Positions 11,038-17,583 of a stretch of 64,000 nucleotides of DNA are shown here, one piece after another. Positions within the stretch are counted from its first letter, which is position 1. The number at the start of each line of letters is the position of its first letter. Location: the NCBI GenBank assembly GCA_041891055.1, contig CP169074.1, positions 1,344,001-1,408,000 on the forward strand, written 5' to 3'. The position numbers were made by a program, and so were the translations under genes. Source of the DNA: Halorutilales archaeon Cl-col2-1. Its GTDB lineage: Archaea; Halobacteriota; Halobacteria; Halobacteriales; Afararchaeaceae. The notes below the pieces were generated by a model, which was not told where the DNA came from, searched no databases, and saw nothing but the letters and a program-made list of their open reading frames with translations.

Positions 11038-11592
11038 TTATCTCGCTGCCTCGGCGACGCGTTCCTTCTCCTCCTTCTTGCTCACGGAGGAACACTGAAC
11101 GTCGTAGTCGGCGGCGTCTATTATCTCGCGGGCTAAGACGTCGCTCGCGTCGGTCTTAGACTTGTAGCTTCCGTTAGCTACCGCGTCGGCTATGAACATC
11201 AGAGCCTGGTCGACACGTCTCTGGGGTGCGACATCGACTGCCTTAGGAACCGAGATTCCACCGTACTTGAGCCTCACGGTCTCCTCGCGGGGTCCTGCGT
11301 TCTCTATGGCGTAGACGAGAAGCTGTGCAGGGTTCTCACCCGTCTCCTCGTGTATCTTGTCGAAGGCGTCACGGACGATCTTGAGAGTCTTCTGTTTCTT
11401 CCCCGTGTTAGTCTGTGTCTGCATCAGACGGTTGGCGAGACGCTCGACAGCCGAGACCTCCCTCTTCGCGAACTGCTTGTTGGCGTGCTGACCCATCGTG
11501 TTCGCGACGGGGGTTATGTTGATGTAGGGCTCGGTCGACCTGTCACTGTACTCTATCTCGTCGACGTCCCATTTGCCGAATAGCTGCGCCAT
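11038..11592 (-). CDS. rps7: 30S ribosomal protein S7 (uS7)
   Basis: VERLANRLM, AIENAGPREETVRLKYGG, VDVAPQRRVD, ERVAEAAR. Confidence 0.96.
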   Translation of the reverse strand: MAQLFGKWDVDEIEYSDRSTEPYINITPVANTMGQHANKQFAKREVSAVERLANRLMQTQTNTGKKQKTLKIVRDAFDKIHEETGENPAQLLVYAIENAGPREETVRLKYGGISVPKAVDVAPQRRVDQALMFIADAVANGSYKSKTDASDVLAREIIDAADYDVQCSSVSKKEEKERVAEAAR

Positions 11593-11593
11593 G

Positions 11594-12022
11594 CTATCTC
11601 ACCGGCTTCTCCTTGTTTCCTCTCACCATCTCTATGAGAGCTACGCCGTTGACCTTGGTGACCTTGTACTTGACACCAGAGAGGTCACCCATCGCACCAC
11701 CACGAGAGCCACCGATTCCCGCTATAGTGACCTCGTCGTGCTCGTCTATGAAGTCTATCGCGCCGTCACCCGGTGCGAAAGCCGTGACCTGCTTGCCGTT
11801 CTTGATAAGCTGGACACGGACACATTTCCTTATAGCCGAGTTGGGCTGTTTCGCCTCTATTCCGACCTTCTCGAGTACGATACCCTTAGCCTGGGGTGCT
11901 CCACCGAGGGGATCGCTCTTCTCCCTCAGACCGCGCGCGCGGCGGGCGTACTTCGAGTCGCTCCACCGCTGATTCTGGCGGTCTTTCTTCATCTTACGTG
12001 CCGCGTATTTACCGTTACCCAT
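11594..12022 (-). CDS. rps12: 30S ribosomal protein S12 (uS12)
   Basis: [24 protein letters not shown]. Confidence 0.97.
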
Positions 12023-12090
12023 GGTTATACGACCTACTTAGGCTAACCATATAAGAGAAACGGTTCTGGGCAAGAAGGCGACGTAACGTC

Positions 12091-12819
12091 TTAGCCACCC
12101 TTAGTGAAGACTATCACGAGGGCTAAGGCGACTCCCGAAAGCAGGGCTAGAGTCGAGTGTGGCTTCTCGTGTTCCATAGCCTCGGGAAGGAGATGTGACG
12201 CCGAGACGTAGAGGAGAACCCCCGATACGAAGCCGAGCATCAGACCCAGGCTACCCTTACCGAGCGCGCTGACGAAGGGATACGCGATGAAGGCTCCTAT
12301 GGGTGTCGTGAGTGCTGCTATAAGGAAGGCGTAGACACCCGCAAGTCTCTCACTCATTCCTCCTTTTATGAGGACGAGGAAGGTTATGACGCCCTCAGCG
12401 AACTCGTGTACGACGAGTCCGGTTCCCGCGAGTACACCCGTGAGGACGCTGACCTGGAAGGTGACGGTGTAGACGACGCCATCGACGAGAGAATGTATTC
12501 CGATCCCCTGTGCGGCTGTGACGCCGAAGGCGAGTGTCTCCTCCCCCGTGAGGTGCTTTATGACCTTGTTCGAGAAGAACATGAAGAGGAATCCACCGAC
12601 TGCGGTGAAGCCCGCCTGTGAGCTCTGACTCAGAGCGTTTGGGAGTGCGAGTACGAGAGGAGTAGTTATGAGGACGCCCGCGGCGAAACACATGAAGTAG
12701 GTCTTCGACCTCTCCGCCCAGTCCTTGTAGCGGTATATCGCGAGTATGCCCACCGAGTTGACCGCCATCGCCGCGACACCGAAGAGGGCTATCCACGTGA
12801 AGGTGTCTATATCCGCCAT
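12091..12819 (-). CDS. ZIP family metal transporter
   Basis: About 8 TMs; FAAGVL, IHSLVDG, VHEFAEG and HLLPEA motifs. Confidence 0.9.
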   Translation of the reverse strand: MADIDTFTWIALFGVAAMAVNSVGILAIYRYKDWAERSKTYFMCFAAGVLITTPLVLALPNALSQSSQAGFTAVGGFLFMFFSNKVIKHLTGEETLAFGVTAAQGIGIHSLVDGVVYTVTFQVSVLTGVLAGTGLVVHEFAEGVITFLVLIKGGMSERLAGVYAFLIAALTTPIGAFIAYPFVSALGKGSLGLMLGFVSGVLLYVSASHLLPEAMEHEKPHSTLALLSGVALALVIVFTKGG

Positions 12820-12828
12820 TTTTACGAC

Positions 12829-13119
12829 CTATGAGCCGTCGACCCTTAGATACTCCGAGAGACACGACTCGAATCTCTCCTTGACGTTGTCGTCGGCATC
12901 GGGCTTGATCCTGAGCTTAATCTCGTTCTTCCCGAGGTTCGTGGTGACGACTACATCGGGAGTCTCCATCCGCAGAAGAGACGAGCCTTCCCCGAGAGGT
13001 CTCTCAATCTCTCCCACGGGTTCGAGACAGTCACGTATCTCCTCGGTGACCGGCTCGTGGGTCTCGTAGACGTAAGCCGTGTCGTCGCCGCACGTCCTCA
13101 TCTCTCGGGGATCGAACAT
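12829..13119 (-). CDS. Hypothetical protein (96 aa)
   Basis: Acidic ORF tightly packed between the V4R and ZIP genes (3- and 9-nt gaps). Confidence 0.7.
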   Translation of the reverse strand: MFDPREMRTCGDDTAYVYETHEPVTEEIRDCLEPVGEIERPLGEGSSLLRMETPDVVVTTNLGKNEIKLRIKPDADDNVKERFESCLSEYLRVDGS

Positions 13120-13122
13120 CTT

Positions 13123-14349
13123 CTACTTCTCGACTATTATCTCGGAGTAGTCGTCGCCCATAGCGACACACGACGTCTGTTTCGCCGTGAATCCGGCTTC
13201 CTTGTCGCTGAAGAGATCCGCGTAGAAGGAGTCGTCGAGCTCTGGCTCCTCAGTTATGTCTCCGTGGTAGAGGAGGTTCATGACCGAGGACGCGACCCCC
13301 TGTGCGAGGTAGTCTACGGGATGGTCGGACTCGCCGAACCACTTGAGATGTCCGACCGACTCGTAGGGCTCGTAGACGTGGACGACGAGTCGCTCACCCG
13401 GGACGAGTTCGTCGACTCTCCAGACGCCCCAGCCGAGAGCGTTTATGACGGCTACGATGCCGTGTAGCCAGTCGTCACGCGTCTCGATCATCGGCTCGAC
13501 GACAGCCTTCCACTCCTCCGACTTCATTATGCCTCCCATCGTGTTGAAGCCACAGATATGTCCCGCCTCTACGAGCATGTCGGTCGCGATCTCGACGGTT
13601 CCCGCCTGGTCAAGGAGTGCGTTCTCGAAACGGAACGAGAGCTTGTTGTAGTAGTCGGCGAATCCCCACGTGAGTTCGACGCCGAAGTAGGGTATGAGAC
13701 CCGAGTCGTTCCCTGAGACGCCGAGGCTGAGTACGTTCTCGACGACCTCTTCCTCGTCGACCGAGCTCTCGACCTGTCTCTCGGGGGGCTCAGCGAGATC
13801 TGGTAGGGAGTTAGAAGAGGTCTTGTCAAGCCAGTCGTAGCTCGCCGACTCGTCGACGGTGTACTCAGAGACGCCGTCTCCGAGTGAGATAGAGCTCTCG
13901 TGTCCCAGGTCGAAGCCGTCGGCGACACCCGCTGCCTTGAGAGTTCCCGCTATGAACCCCTTGTCGAAGTACTCGGCGGGGTCTTCCCTCTCGCCGACGT
14001 TGAGCTTCGAAGCCCTCGCGTAATGGGAGTTACGGCTCACGACCTTCCCCGAACCGATGTCCGAGAAGTCGACTGTGCCGTGTCCCGTGAATCTGAAGAC
14101 CTCCTCGGCGAACTCTAGTGCCTCGTCGCTTGAGGCGTCGTTACGGTCAACGTACTCCGAGACGAGTAGGTATGCGGTCTCAGCCGCCGACTGGAGAAAG
14201 ACCCTCTCCGAGTCGATGTAGTTGGGATCCTCTATATACTGGTGTAGAGAGCGGTTGTAATGGTTACAGTGGGCGAGCACGGGCTGTCTCTCTATCTCGG
14301 CGCGTCCCCTCTGTGTGTCGTAGTCGATACCAGGCTCCGTGTCTGTCAT
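13123..14349 (-). CDS. Tandem V4R (4-vinyl reductase-like) domain protein
   Basis: Two V4R-like repeats (FTGHG...GFIAG...SISLGD; LGWG...QGVASS...CVAMGDDYSE); HCNHYN and EAGHICGFNTMGG motifs; ATGA overlap with the upstream gene. Confidence 0.75.
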   Translation of the reverse strand: MTDTEPGIDYDTQRGRAEIERQPVLAHCNHYNRSLHQYIEDPNYIDSERVFLQSAAETAYLLVSEYVDRNDASSDEALEFAEEVFRFTGHGTVDFSDIGSGKVVSRNSHYARASKLNVGEREDPAEYFDKGFIAGTLKAAGVADGFDLGHESSISLGDGVSEYTVDESASYDWLDKTSSNSLPDLAEPPERQVESSVDEEEVVENVLSLGVSGNDSGLIPYFGVELTWGFADYYNKLSFRFENALLDQAGTVEIATDMLVEAGHICGFNTMGGIMKSEEWKAVVEPMIETRDDWLHGIVAVINALGWGVWRVDELVPGERLVVHVYEPYESVGHLKWFGESDHPVDYLAQGVASSVMNLLYHGDITEEPELDDSFYADLFSDKEAGFTAKQTSCVAMGDDYSEIIVEK

Positions 14350-14624
14350 CGGAACCACCCCAGGACTCTGTCGAGAAAACTGTCGGCGAGCTCAGACTCG
14401 CCCTCGCCACCACCCGCTCTCTTCTCGAACTCCTCACCCGTTATCTCCTCAGCCGCCTTCCTCACAGCCTCGTACTCGTCGTCTGAGACCGTGTCGTTTT
14501 CGCCTATCGACCCGAGGTCGACGCCCGTCTTGAGCTGTATCCTGCCGTACGCCTTCCAAGGGGGCTCGTCGCTCGGATACGCCTCCTCTATCTCAGTCTT
14601 GAGACGGTAAATGTCAGAAGCCAT
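14346..14624 (-). CDS. Hypothetical protein (92 aa), first gene of the V4R-ZIP operon
   Basis: Acidic ORF divergent from endA; its stop overlaps the V4R start. Confidence 0.7.
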   Translation of the reverse strand: MASDIYRLKTEIEEAYPSDEPPWKAYGRIQLKTGVDLGSIGENDTVSDDEYEAVRKAAEEITGEEFEKRAGGGEGESELADSFLDRVLGWFR

Positions 14625-14702
14625 CTTATCTATCTACGTATATCACGCCTCAGAATTAGCTCTTTGGGTTGACTATATATGGTGAGACACGTATTAAACG
14701 AC

Positions 14703-15734
14703 GTGAAACCAAGACTGCAACCCGACGAAAACGCCGTATTACTCGGCGATGACGCGAGGAACCGGTTCTACGGCTCTAGCGGCTACGGACGTCCCGAGGA
14801 CTCGGGGCTGAGTCTCAGCCTCGTCGAGGCGGCACATCTTCTGAGACGCGGCAAGATAAAAGACATTGAGGGCAAGGGGTTCAATGGGTTCGTCGAGGAA
14901 GCCTCGGAACTCAACGATGATTTCGCCGCCGTCTTCGAGGTCTACTCCGATCTCCGTGAAAGGGGTTACTACCTCCAGCACCGTCCGGGCGAGAGTTCGA
15001 TCGATGTCTATCCGAGAGGTAAGCTACCGTCGGAGAGCACGCCGAAGGATGTTGTCCAGGTCACCGACGAGGACGGACGCGTACACGTAGACGAACTCGT
15101 CAGGGATGGTGACGGCGGTAGTATACTCGGCGTCGTCGACTCCGAGGGCGACGTGACCTACTTCAGAGCCGAGAGATGGGACGAGAACGGAGGGACTGAG
15201 CCGTACCCCGCGACTGAGACAAGCCTCAACGCACGTCTACTGGGCAGAAGGATCGTCGTCGATAGCGAGAACGGAGAGTACGGCGGTCTCCACTCGTCTT
15301 CTTTCTATGGGAGCGAAAACGAGGACGACGGACGTCTCATGCTCTCGCCCGAGGAAGCCGTCTATCTCGACGACGAAGGCGTGGTGAGACTGAGCCACGA
15401 GGACAGACTGAGTACCGAGAGACTTCTCGACAACGACGTCTTTGAAATTTACTCCGACCTACGCGGGAGAGGTCTGTGTCCCAAGACGGGGTTCAAGTTC
15501 GGAACCGAGTTCCGCGTCTACGAGACTGTGACCGACGTCGAAGACCTTCCCCACTCGGAGATACTCGTCGACACTGTCAAGACCGACAAGGTCTTCGATA
15601 TACACGAGTTATCGCGCGCGGTACGTCTCGCACACGGAGTCAGAAAGGAAATGGTATTCGGAGTAGTCGGAGCCGAAAGCAACGCGAGCGGAGACGGAGT
15701 CAAGTACGTGAGCGTGAGTCGGTACAGACCTTAA
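14703..15734 (+). CDS. endA: tRNA-splicing endonuclease (alpha2 type)
   Basis: Duplicated LSLVEA/LSPEEA and YSDLR.RG units; KTGFKFGTEFRVY, HSE, RLAHGVRK. GTG start about 28 nt after TATATA. Confidence 0.93.
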   Translation: MKPRLQPDENAVLLGDDARNRFYGSSGYGRPEDSGLSLSLVEAAHLLRRGKIKDIEGKGFNGFVEEASELNDDFAAVFEVYSDLRERGYYLQHRPGESSIDVYPRGKLPSESTPKDVVQVTDEDGRVHVDELVRDGDGGSILGVVDSEGDVTYFRAERWDENGGTEPYPATETSLNARLLGRRIVVDSENGEYGGLHSSSFYGSENEDDGRLMLSPEEAVYLDDEGVVRLSHEDRLSTERLLDNDVFEIYSDLRGRGLCPKTGFKFGTEFRVYETVTDVEDLPHSEILVDTVKTDKVFDIHELSRAVRLAHGVRKEMVFGVVGAESNASGDGVKYVSVSRYRP

Positions 15735-16536
15735 CTGCCTTGATCGTATCGGACGCCGTTACGGAAGAACTTACGTATCCAGACGACTCCGTCCGAAATC
15801 CCTGAGGAGCCGATTCTCTCGACGAAGTCGTCAACGTGGGCTTTGCCTGTTACTAGAACTGCGTTTTCGTAACATGACGACTCTGCAAGGTACAGGCTCT
15901 ATCCAACATTATCTCGTTTCTCTCGTTGATGGTTCAGTAGATGGCGATGTTAAGAGCGACGATTGTTGAGAGAAAGAGTATGACCGATCCTACAGAGATC
16001 TGTAAGAGAAGCCAGACAGGGAAGACCAGTAGAGCCGTCACAGTTCCGGCACGGCGTGAGATTCGGGCTGTCCCGAAGACGAGACCGACTGCGGCGAAGG
16101 CGACTACATAGGTTGTCACGACTGCGGCTGGAAAGACAGCTAAGTATCCGACCACAATCATCCAGTTTAAACCGACTGAAACGATGCCGCCCGCCGAGAA
16201 GATTACGCTGAAATGGGGATCGATTCTGTGAACCTCTATGTCATCCTTATCGGCTACCTCGTACGCGGCTCTGATCTCGGGTGGCACGAGGTCACGTGTG
16301 ACGACGGCGTATGCCGCGAGTGAAACGACTGAGTAGATACCAAAGCCAAGGACTACGAGCGGAAGCCTGAGGAGACCACGAAGCCAGTCAGCTAGACCGG
16401 GTCGTTCATCGGGGTACTCGACGAAGATGGCATCAGCATCTTCTTCTTCGACCCTCTCACGAAGTTCATCACGGACTACCGAGAGTCTATCTATATGTAT
16501 TACACCGAATATTCCTAGGCTGAGGTCAGGTGGCAT
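15731..16536 (-). pseudogene. Disrupted TraB/GumN-like membrane protein
   Basis: GVIHID and IFVEYP at the N-terminus. After TGA 15934-36 the frame continues TINERNEIMLDRA, and after a 1-nt shift near 15888 it reads LAESSCYENAVLVTGKAHVDDF...* (15731). Confidence 0.65.
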
Positions 16537-16554
16537 TTGTTTTGGCTCCGTAGA

Positions 16555-17583
16555 TTATGCTTCACCCACGTAGAGAGTATAGCTGTAGTACTCGGCGTCG
16601 TACCAAAGATGTCCGTTCTCGGACGTGTCGTCGAGACTCAGTCTGTCGAGTAGACTCTCGAAAGCCTCGGTGAGTGGTGTCTCCTCGGTGTATGTATCAT
16701 TGGCTATAGCCTTCTCAAGTAGGTCACTCTCCTCGTCTGGTAGATCTCCGGGATCGATCTCGGCGTCGACACGTGACTCGAAGACTACGTCACGGAACTC
16801 ATCACGTGAGTCAGCCACCTTCACCGTGAGAGTACTGTACTCGGTCTCGGTGATGTTCTCGTCTGTGACGTCGATAGTGTAAGCCCACTGTCCTGTCTCT
16901 TCCATCCTCACGACCTCGCCGTTGAGTTCACGCGTCCCCAGACGGCTCTCGACCTCGGCGGGTCGACGCAGAACGTAGGCGTCTCCGTGGAGTAGATCCG
17001 AGGCTCCCCCCTCGCCATTAGTGACGTGGTTAGTATGCAGAATCTTGAGGACACGTGCCACGGGTCGTTCGAGGTCATCGATTCCGACTGCGTCACGCGG
17101 GATGTTTTCCTCCGAGACTCGGCTGGCTTCGACTACTGTGCGCTCGGTCTTTCTGCGCCCGGTGATGGTATTTTTGACTTGGTAATATCCTTCCTCCGCC
17201 TCGACGTAAGCGTCGTCAGGAAGAGGTGTGTAGCCGTAAGTAGTGTGGCGTCCCTCAGGTAGTATATTGCCGAGTGTTTCCCTCGCGCGGTCTCCGAAGA
17301 GGTCGTCGTAGTCGGGCTGGTAGAGGGAGTGTTCGACAGGAGAGGTGGAGATACTTTCTACGTCCAAGGAGTACCCCGTCGTCTCTGACTGTGAGTGGAG
17401 TCCCGAGAGACATCCCGTGAGCGAAGTCAGAGCCGCTAATCCCGTGGCACGAACTGCTTGTCGACGTGTGATAGACAGTCCGTCTCTCGGATTCATATTA
17501 GCTACTCTATCGACGGAGTCCTCGGATAAAGTATTTCTGTAGGAAGAGACCATCTCATCCGGAGTTTTCCGGGAACTCGACAC
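16555..17583 (-). CDS. Tat lipoprotein, hypothetical
   Basis: ITRRQAV twin-arginine motif and LTGC lipobox; true start probably later (MNPRDG). Confidence 0.7.
   Translation of the reverse strand: MSSSRKTPDEMVSSYRNTLSEDSVDRVANMNPRDGLSITRRQAVRATGLAALTSLTGCLSGLHSQSETTGYSLDVESISTSPVEHSLYQPDYDDLFGDRARETLGNILPEGRHTTYGYTPLPDDAYVEAEEGYYQVKNTITGRRKTERTVVEASRVSEENIPRDAVGIDDLERPVARVLKILHTNHVTNGEGGASDLLHGDAYVLRRPAEVESRLGTRELNGEVVRMEETGQWAYTIDVTDENITETEYSTLTVKVADSRDEFRDVVFESRVDAEIDPGDLPDEESDLLEKAIANDTYTEETPLTEAFESLLDRLSLDDTSENGHLWYDAEYYSYTLYVGEA

Follow-up and report, generated by a model that had tools for sequence, protein, structure and literature searches.

In the genome of Halorutilales archaeon Cl-col2-1, four closely packed genes at positions 12091..14624 of a 64,000-nt stretch of contig CP169074.1 (the window, to which all position numbers refer) encode a small protein of 92 aa (s92), a 408-aa protein with two V4R-like halves, a second small protein of 96 aa (s96) and a ZIP-family metal permease. 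The locus raises the question of which of these genes belong together and what their products do. A first-pass annotation had proposed a new four-gene system, in which a metal- or ligand-sensing or catalytic complex is linked to metal transport. In this study, we report that conservation extends to three genes only, which make up the module s92 / tandem-V4R / s96, and not to all four. The best reading of the trio is a stand-alone heteromeric receptor for a ligand or a metal cofactor, acting in the manner of H-NOX or ODP; we hold this reading tentatively, with somewhat less than even confidence.

Organisation of the locus

All four open reading frames (ORFs) of the segment are co-oriented and are carried by the minus strand:

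14346..14624, minus strand: s92, small subunit, 92 aa (ORF call)
13123..14349, minus strand: tandem V4R-fold protein, 408 aa (ATG at 14349, stop at 13123)
12829..13119, minus strand: s96, small subunit, 96 aa (ORF call)
12091..12819, minus strand: ZIP-family divalent-metal permease, 242 aa; a lineage-specific neighbour outside the conserved module

The stop of s92 and the start of the V4R gene overlap by 4 nt (ATGA), and gaps of 3 nt and 9 nt separate the V4R gene from s96 and s96 from the ZIP gene; the ORF coordinates reproduce exactly the arrangement first described. An alternative GTG start at 14358 would give a V4R protein of 411 aa, and the database copy of the protein has 408 aa. All four ORFs are considered real genes because homologues exist for each. 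The encoded proteins are acidic, a trait that, taken with the mostly haloarchaeal named relatives of ZIP, marks the host as a haloarchaeon.

Distribution of the module

A total of 195 genomic stretches were matched, of which 144 encode relatives of the V4R protein; the counts given here rest on the best 80 of these loci, which are cited by L numbers. Gene calls at these loci followed a longest-ORF heuristic, and the small genes were found with iterated hidden Markov models (HMMs). An s92-like ORF adjoins the V4R gene in 25/80 loci and an s96-like ORF in 30/80, with at least one of the two in 36/80. The ZIP gene was absent from all 80 loci by phmmer and tblastn, including the haloarchaeal loci L001 and L006. 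The co-occurrence that the first-pass annotation called for was thus found for the small proteins and failed for ZIP, and since ZIP occurs in none of the related loci, the conserved system comprises three genes and not four.

The order s92-V4R-s96 was found in the window, L001 and L006, and the order s96-s92-V4R in L002-L004, while L005, L009 and L076 carry s96 on the other strand. In seven more loci (L049, L051, L052, L062, L063, L065 and L078), divergent flanking ORFs showed a weak relation to the small proteins in hhalign comparisons (P 7e-5, 2e-4 and 4e-4; probability 34-62 %, cross-controls below 3 %), two groups being weakly related to s92 (P 7e-5 and 2e-4). In Cytophagales, the 73-aa ORF that precedes the V4R gene was not detectably s92-like by the same method.

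A quick IQ-TREE maximum-likelihood tree, with a midpoint root only, was computed from 68 loci and the window; it omits 12 loci in which the V4R ORF falls outside 380-500 aa. On this tree the label 'no small gene' requires 2 changes, compared with a mean of 23.3 for shuffled labels, and 0/500 shuffles were as low. Rows without both small genes fall into a 32-row proteobacterial clade (support 99) that includes Thiothrix, Acidithiobacillus, Halothiobacillus and Acidocella (L007-L038 and others), and 3 Calditrichota rows. The proteobacterial proteins of this clade have a long form of ~445-457 aa with an insertion of ~25 residues in the C-lobe (columns ~296-321 of alignment A1). This insertion might take the place of a small subunit.

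In Acidithiobacillus the long-form gene is present as two or three paralogues per genome: L028/L035/L037 in A. concretivorus, L032/L072 in A. montserratensis, L031/L038 in Acidithiobacillus sp. HP-2 and L027/L048 in one Acidithiobacillus metagenome-assembled genome (MAG). Some of these copies adjoin genes for XerC/D-type integrases or Sel1-repeat proteins.

The family is spread over bacteria of many phyla and a few haloarchaea, which account for only 3/80 of the V4R loci. The three haloarchaeal rows form one clade (support 100), nested in a 7-row clade with groundwater Deltaproteobacteria/Myxococcota and Sericytochromatia in which both small genes are present throughout. This nesting among bacterial sequences indicates that the module was probably acquired from bacteria.

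Fold and duplication of the tandem-V4R protein

Searches with the single V4R-protein sequence were of little help: the Pfam V4R model (PF02830) scored 18 bits over residues 392-410 only, below the gathering cut-off of 31, and NCBIfam gave no match. A word-indexed search found 234 relatives. Among the 120 matches listed, lengths ranged from 313 to 457 aa, PF02830 was precomputed for 13 homologues, and all names were 'hypothetical protein' or 'uncharacterized' save one 4VR-domain label. An exhaustive HMMER search recovered 348 representative clusters (50 % identity) at E<=1e-3, 92 of them at E<=1e-30. Alignment A2 was prepared from 84 diverse family members, the protein of the window included, and this protein shares 22-59 % identity with the other 83.

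The profile of A2 revealed the relationships of the protein. Its N-terminal half matched the solved structures of MJ1460 (E 1.4e-6), MopR (4e-5) and PoxR (0.011). Alignment of the N-half with the C-half by hhalign gave a probability of 98.9 % (E 2e-17, 155 columns), from which it follows that the 408-aa protein is an internal duplication. The two lobes lie at about residues 1-167 and 196-408, with a linker between them. The AlphaFold2 model is of very high confidence (predicted local distance difference test, pLDDT, 95.8; predicted template modelling score, pTM, 0.94), and a Foldseek search of PDB with it returned the sensor domains of MopR/PoxR/DmpR, H-NOX, Bet3/TRAPPC3 and MJ1460, each covering approximately half of the query, with no whole-length match. 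Both profile and fold comparisons thus place the protein in the V4R / H-NOX-like fold superfamily. The two V4R-like halves first noticed by eye are therefore borne out by the profile matches to solved structures, the lobe-to-lobe alignment and the model, with Pfam below its cut-off on the single sequence. The absence of an output domain was also upheld: none was detected by Pfam on the V4R protein, and no longer fused relatives (799-2280 aa) were found, the latter being weak evidence.

In two myxobacterial loci and one from Sericytochromatia the V4R gene is split (L064:5977-7148, L068:5980-7190 and L076:5986-7184), with an N-lobe ORF of 172-180 aa and an adjacent C-lobe ORF of 219-228 aa whose ends overlap. 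Many database proteins of ~200 aa match the C-lobe only. Fused and split forms look interchangeable.

Conserved residues and predicted pockets

Two motifs rich in His and Cys had been pointed out in the protein, HCNHYN (residues 27-32) and EAGHICGFNTMGG (residues 261-273), and both proved to be conserved in A2, for example at H27 (77/84) and C266 (74/84). The N-lobe bears H27, C28, H30, E57 and H109, and the C-lobe bears E261, H264, C266, E330 and C394. Occurrence of these residues in A2 was as follows:

H27, N-lobe: 77/84
C28, N-lobe: 70/84
H30, N-lobe: 73/84
E57, N-lobe: 50/84
H109, N-lobe: 76/84
E261, C-lobe: 74/84
H264, C-lobe: 65/84
C266, C-lobe: 74/84
E330, C-lobe: 83/84
C394, C-lobe: 66/84

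Position 29 is His in 44/84 sequences and Asn in 34/84. The lobe-to-lobe alignment pairs H109 with E330 and E57 with H264, which indicates that the two pockets have diverged, the N-lobe pocket being His-rich and the C-lobe pocket of His/Cys/Glu type.

The first-pass annotation had also argued that V4R domains often coordinate zinc, and here the comparison with MopR went the other way. The MopR cluster C155, E178, C181 and C189, which we take to be the zinc ligands, aligns with E126, H150, S153 and S161 in the N-half of the window's protein. Across the family, position 153 is Cys in 58/84 sequences and position 161 in 43/84. In the C-half, the only cluster position retained is C394 (66/84); the protein has S402 where Cys is found in 32/84. 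With E126/H150/S153/S161 in place of the Cys/Glu cluster, the MopR-type zinc site has been lost in the clade of this protein. The canonical V4R zinc site, being degenerate at the MopR-aligned positions, was rejected as a candidate.

Small proteins and the predicted complex

The two small proteins belong to no Pfam family. Neither s92 nor s96 gave a Pfam or NCBIfam match on the single sequence, Pfam matched 0/26 members of the s92 family (alignment A3) and 0/31 members of the s96 family (alignment A4), and sequence-profile searches of PDB with A3 and A4 gave nothing below E 0.3. No relationship to either V4R lobe was detected when A3 and A4 were compared with the lobes by hhalign, so at the sequence level the small proteins are not detached pieces of a lobe.

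Protein s92 has a conserved N-terminal domain of ~68 aa in which Arg28 is invariant in A3. Its Atlas model (pTM 0.50) resembles hypothetical proteins of 66-67 aa and the first ~70 aa of HNOB proteins, with a template modelling score (TM) of 0.53-0.58 overall and 0.53-0.55 for the HNOB N-terminal helical part, which is to be taken as a lead only. The C-terminal ~24 residues of s92 (14346-14420) form an acidic, Gly-rich extension absent from the other 25 aligned members; this tail may reflect adaptation to a halophilic life or serve in an additional interaction. In L006 (L006:4989-5906, Halobacteriales archaeon QS_8_69_26), an s92-like domain occupies residues 239-305 of a 305-aa longest ORF, which reflects either a genuine fusion at the N-terminus or merely the calling of ORFs from the longest start.

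In s96, Cys10 is invariant in A4. The AlphaFold2 model of s96 (pLDDT 89.8, pTM 0.79) consists of a beta-sheet and a C-terminal helix, and a Foldseek search with it gave 0 matches in PDB at E<=0.001 and a weak likeness to a TBP-like half.

A complex of the V4R protein, s92 and s96 was modelled with custom alignments, s96 being the scored partner. The interaction score (ipSAE) between s96 and the V4R protein was 0.81, 0.00 and 0.81 in three runs (median 0.81), and the best of 3 controls scored 0.00, so that for s96 the complex prediction proposed in the first-pass annotation came out positive. The ipSAE mark is reached by 116/157 solved complexes and by 2/215 mismatched pairs, a calibration that holds roughly here, having been made with pairs and the tool's own alignments while this job had three chains. 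The runs share at least 13 % of contacts, and the pLDDT of the partner is at least 75. On this basis s96 is predicted to bind the V4R protein. The confident interface of the model comprises residues 7-13, 15 and 41-72 of s96 and residues 29, 112-116, 205-225, 277-283 and 370-372 of the V4R protein. This predicted interface puts the Cys10 loop of s96 beside N29 of the HCNH motif and the helix starting at H109, a placement that suggests a composite site in the model, with which one run disagreed.

Pairing of V4R-fold subunits and small partners also brings to mind a ligand-free scaffold. In the eukaryotic TRAPP core, subunits of the Bet3 family, which have the V4R fold, form pairs to which small alpha/beta subunits bind, and the present trio could be an analogous assembly in which the conserved His and Cys residues are structural. 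The Foldseek matches to Bet3/TRAPPC3 (target-based TM-score, TMt, 0.56-0.69; E 0.01-0.03), the fused pseudo-heterodimer with its split two-gene forms in L064, L068 and L076, and the two dedicated small subunits all fit such a scaffold. However, the Bet3 matches are weaker than those to the MopR/PoxR ligand sensors, the s96 fold has no significant match to longin or roadblock subunits, and near-invariant His, Cys and Glu residues at pocket positions favour chemistry. We consider a scaffold of this kind highly improbable.

Neighbouring genes and proposed function

The genes next to the module in other genomes provide the main clue to its function. Pfam identified signalling genes beside the module in 16/80 loci from many phyla, encoding histidine kinases (HK), response regulators (RR), methyl-accepting chemotaxis proteins (MCP) and others:

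L002: HK-RR, Hpt, RR-T2SSE
L010: OmpR-type RR and CHASE2 HK
L014: OmpR-type RR
L011: MCP
L039: GAF-SpoIIE
L042: RR
L044: RR and HK
L047: PAS HK
L049: PAS-HK and NtrC-type RR
L052: HK-RR
L053: GAF
L062: CheA-like
L064: PAS-STAS
L065: CheR
L079: Ser/Thr kinase
L080: PAS/GAF HKs

Enrichment was measured using HMMs built from the receiver and HATPase_c domains that had been found, a chain being defined as genes on the same strand as the V4R gene and joined to it by gaps of less than 150 nt. Receiver or HATPase_c genes made up 14/119 of the genes in such chains and 16/590 of the other called genes of the same loci, corresponding to an odds ratio of 4.8 (Fisher p 9e-5).

Immediately upstream of the V4R gene, L042 and L036 (Pfam) and L046 and L047 (BLAST cluster and layout) have a gene for an ODP-family di-iron protein. 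These loci belong to two unrelated lineages, Calditrichota (L042, L046, L047) and Acidithiobacillus (L036). The gene order in Calditrichota (L042:546-4553, L046 and L047) is response regulator, 135-aa ORF, ODP and V4R, followed in L047 by the PAS kinase; in the Acidithiobacillus MAG (L036:4740-7347) it is ODP, 107-aa ORF and V4R.

A stand-alone, output-less ligand-binding protein encoded beside interchangeable transducers is the pattern known from H-NOX and ODP, and it is this pattern that favours a receptor role for the trio. The three proteins would form a soluble heteromeric complex that binds a ligand or a metal cofactor, with the 408-aa protein as its core, a putative fused pseudo-heterodimer of two V4R/MopR/H-NOX-type lobes. 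Residues H27, C28, H30, E57 and H109 would line the N-lobe pocket and E261, H264, C266 and E330 the C-lobe pocket, and s96 would dock on the C-lobe and the lobe junction, with its Cys10 loop beside the HCNH motif and the H109 helix. The complex may bind a metal ion or a metal-containing cofactor, such as Fe or Zn, an Fe-S centre or a tetrapyrrole. The state of the receptor would then be passed to separate partners, as H-NOX and ODP do; in bacteria, this part would fall to the histidine kinases, response regulators and proteins of chemotaxis and partner switching that are encoded next to the module. If coupled to ZIP in the present genome, the complex might sense cytoplasmic metal or redox status, or accept metal imported by ZIP. 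We infer the identity of the ligand, the sensing role and any coupling to ZIP from these comparisons.

A bolder version of the receptor reading, which we regard as possible and on the doubtful side, would make the trio an unrecognised and widespread class of stand-alone cytoplasmic receptors found in more than 10 bacterial phyla and some haloarchaea. Its three subunits would build a composite His/Cys metal or Fe-S centre, with the Cys10 loop capping the HCNH/H109 pocket, and would signal O2, NO, redox or metal status to interchangeable transducers (HK, MCP/CheA, SpoIIE/STAS, Ser/Thr kinases), in parallel to H-NOX, NosP and ODP; in Proteobacteria, the ~25-residue insertion would replace the small subunits.

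Several observations weigh against a receptor. Signalling neighbours are found in a minority of loci, the Pfam scan of neighbours covered 116 ORFs only, the p value of the enrichment is optimistic because the loci are not phylogenetically independent, and the ORF list and Pfam show no signalling gene near the module in the window. The proteobacterial and Calditrichota rows that lack the small genes still keep the His/Cys residues, from which it follows that the site does not require Cys10 of s96, and one of the three complex runs scored 0.00. We infer the presence of H27, H30, E57 and H109 in one pocket from the MopR alignment and the list of interface residues in the model. Finally, 22-59 % identity across domains and phyla, together with long invariant motifs, fits a fast-evolving sensor less well than it does an enzyme or an obligate complex.

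An enzyme or a cofactor-handling complex, for example one processing tetrapyrroles, sulfur or Fe-S centres, with the s96 cysteine as a carrier or catalytic thiol and the lobes holding the substrate, therefore has to be weighed. The polar residues are highly conserved (E330 in 83/84, H27 in 77/84, C266 in 74/84), Cys10 of s96 is invariant, and the family stands alone in many genomes and is multi-copy in Acidithiobacillus. Class-V aminotransferase genes, whose products have the cysteine-desulfurase-type fold, lie directly downstream in 5/80 loci (L053, L063, L068, L074 and L078). Pairs of V4R proteins in Fe-S / globin / bilin-reductase clusters (PMC10151467) offer a precedent. Against this, the aminotransferase link is confined to those 5 loci; the 116 scanned neighbour ORFs and the neighbours in the window included no Fe-S protein, globin, haem oxygenase or bilin reductase; and signalling genes are the sole enriched class of neighbours among those measured. 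To our knowledge, no protein of the V4R superfamily has a demonstrated catalytic activity, which also counts against an enzyme. An enzymatic role remains the main rival because of the very high conservation and the desulfurase-type neighbours, and we judge it somewhat unlikely.

The ZIP gene and metal homeostasis

The permease is a clear member of the ZIP family, scoring 69.2 bits with PF02535 (gathering cut-off 35.1) and 43.7 bits with the ZupT equivalog NF003243, far below the cut-off of 252. Homologues numbered 1032; among the 120 matches listed, PF02535 was precomputed on all, and those with organism names come mostly from haloarchaea (including Natrinema, Natronomonas, Haloterrigena, Halomicrobium and Halobacterium), with about 69-73 % identity. 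A few named relatives come from bacterial MAGs (Chloroflexota, Anaerolineae and Eubacteriales). ZIP is thus a native, ubiquitous haloarchaeal transporter that is linked to the module only in this lineage. In the haloarchaeal locus L001 an E1 dehydrogenase component follows s96, and in L006 a CutA1 gene is convergent to the module. The simplest reading is that the bacterial module was acquired and landed directly upstream of the native ZIP gene in this lineage.

The possibility that all four genes nevertheless constitute one metal-homeostasis system, in which the V4R complex senses or chaperones Zn, Fe or Mn together with ZIP, is the reading closest to the first proposal. On their common strand, s96 and ZIP are only 9 nt apart, with no evident space for a promoter in the gap, and co-transcription of the two genes is predicted to be likely from this spacing. 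The ZIP gene is intact and clearly of its family, the His/Cys/Glu-rich pockets are compatible with metal binding, and the CutA1 gene of L006 would suit such a role. However, ZIP is missing from every related locus, including L001 with its dehydrogenase component instead and L006; it is widespread in haloarchaea, in contrast to the few haloarchaeal V4R loci; the positions of the MopR zinc-type cluster are not conserved in the protein; and no class of metal transporter recurs among the scanned neighbours. We regard such a system as unlikely. The inclusion of ZIP, an ordinary haloarchaeal gene, in the conserved system did not survive the comparison of loci, and since ZIP is absent elsewhere and the zinc argument fails, the link to metal transport becomes a lineage-specific possibility and not a property of the family.

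For this genome, the annotation is corrected to a three-gene unit probably derived from bacteria and a native ZIP gene joined to it only in this lineage. A confirmed receptor role would have wider consequences. Stand-alone receptors such as H-NOX and ODP explained the input of many sensor-less kinases and chemoreceptors. If the trio is a receptor, it would likewise provide the input for a number of systems (two-component, chemotaxis and partner-switching) belonging to myxobacteria, Bacteroidota, anammox bacteria, Nitrospinota, Calditrichota and sulfur- and iron-oxidising Proteobacteria, and the V4R fold would be shown to work as a fused heterodimer with accessory subunits.

Surroundings of the module

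The features upstream of s92 are:

14625..14678, 54 nt: divergent intergenic region between s92 and endA, the presumed promoter region of the module
14679..15734, plus strand: tRNA-splicing endonuclease gene endA, upstream of s92 and divergent (Pfam and NCBIfam)

Downstream, 68 nt beyond ZIP, lie the ORFs 12022..11594 and 11592..11038, which are read from their translations as ribosomal proteins S12 and S7. Inspection by eye of the 68 nt that separate ZIP from the putative S12 gene (12023-12090) shows a TTATAT sequence ~29 nt ahead of the S12 ATG; S12-S7 could thus have their own promoter, and the module-ZIP unit therefore probably ends at ZIP. Further upstream on the minus strand (15934-17583) are two ORFs of 200 aa and 342 aa that gave no Pfam or NCBIfam match. 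On inspection, the 200-aa product looks like a multi-pass membrane protein and the N-terminus of the acidic 342-aa product resembles a Tat/lipobox signal. PADLOC returned 0 matches for all four proteins of the segment, and the reading as an anti-phage defence system was therefore dropped.

Comparison with known systems

The V4R family is uncharacterised and the trio is undescribed in the open literature searched: no account of a tandem V4R protein accompanied by two small subunits was found there, subscription journals lying outside its coverage. Together with the lack of a Pfam family for the small proteins, this agrees with the first-pass annotation, in which no described system of this layout was known. 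Compared with ZIP/ZupT-type permeases, the 242-aa protein is a ZIP member below the ZupT equivalog cut-off, and a ZIP/ZupT-type gene is associated with the V4R module here only, the count in the other loci being 0/80.

Among archaeal proteins, the methanogen transcription regulator MsvR is a V4R-domain protein in which cysteines are reported to modulate activity with redox state (PMC3729527), and it offers a precedent for Cys-based sensing in the V4R fold. MsvR combines a DNA-binding domain with a single V4R domain, unlike the output-less tandem V4R protein. The nearest conceptual precedent, compared by description, comes from the Fe-S / BBAG-globin / pre-PcyA clusters, among them slr0144-slr0149 of Synechocystis, in which V4R proteins of clades A and B are paired (PMC10151467). 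In both cases two different V4R modules act together, here fused or, in L064, L068 and L076, encoded by adjacent genes. The Fe-S protein, globin and, often, haem oxygenase or ferredoxin-dependent bilin reductase of those clusters have no counterpart among the 116 scanned neighbours here.

The best structural match to each lobe is the sensor region of MopR/PoxR/DmpR, the phenol-responsive sigma54 activators (XylR_N and V4R), with Foldseek E values of 8e-5 to 7e-4 and TMt of 0.53-0.68. The likeness lies in a small-molecule pocket within the same fold, and H109 is located a few residues from the position aligned to what we take to be the pocket Trp of MopR. In these activators a single domain is fused to AAA+ and helix-turn-helix (HTH) domains, whereas here two lobes are fused to each other without an output domain; their Cys/Glu/Cys/Cys zinc site is represented by E126, H150, S153 and S161; and the present protein differs from them in its His-rich motif and its two dedicated small subunits.

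The H-NOX (HNOB) fold is distantly related, with Foldseek E values of 4e-3 to 3e-2, TMt of about 0.4 and root-mean-square deviations of 6-11 A, and HNOB (PF07700) gave no match at E<=0.1 in the V4R protein. Haem ligation of the H-NOX type was rejected on inspection, structural equivalence being judged by eye: helix 74-87 contains no His, and the H-NOX motif Y-x-S-x-R is missing. What the module has in common with H-NOX and ODP is the genomic logic of a stand-alone soluble receptor gene beside varied transducers (HK, MCP and RR). The module consists of three subunits where H-NOX and ODP have one, and we rate the trio as a small-ligand module of the V4R fold whose heteromeric, stand-alone format is new.

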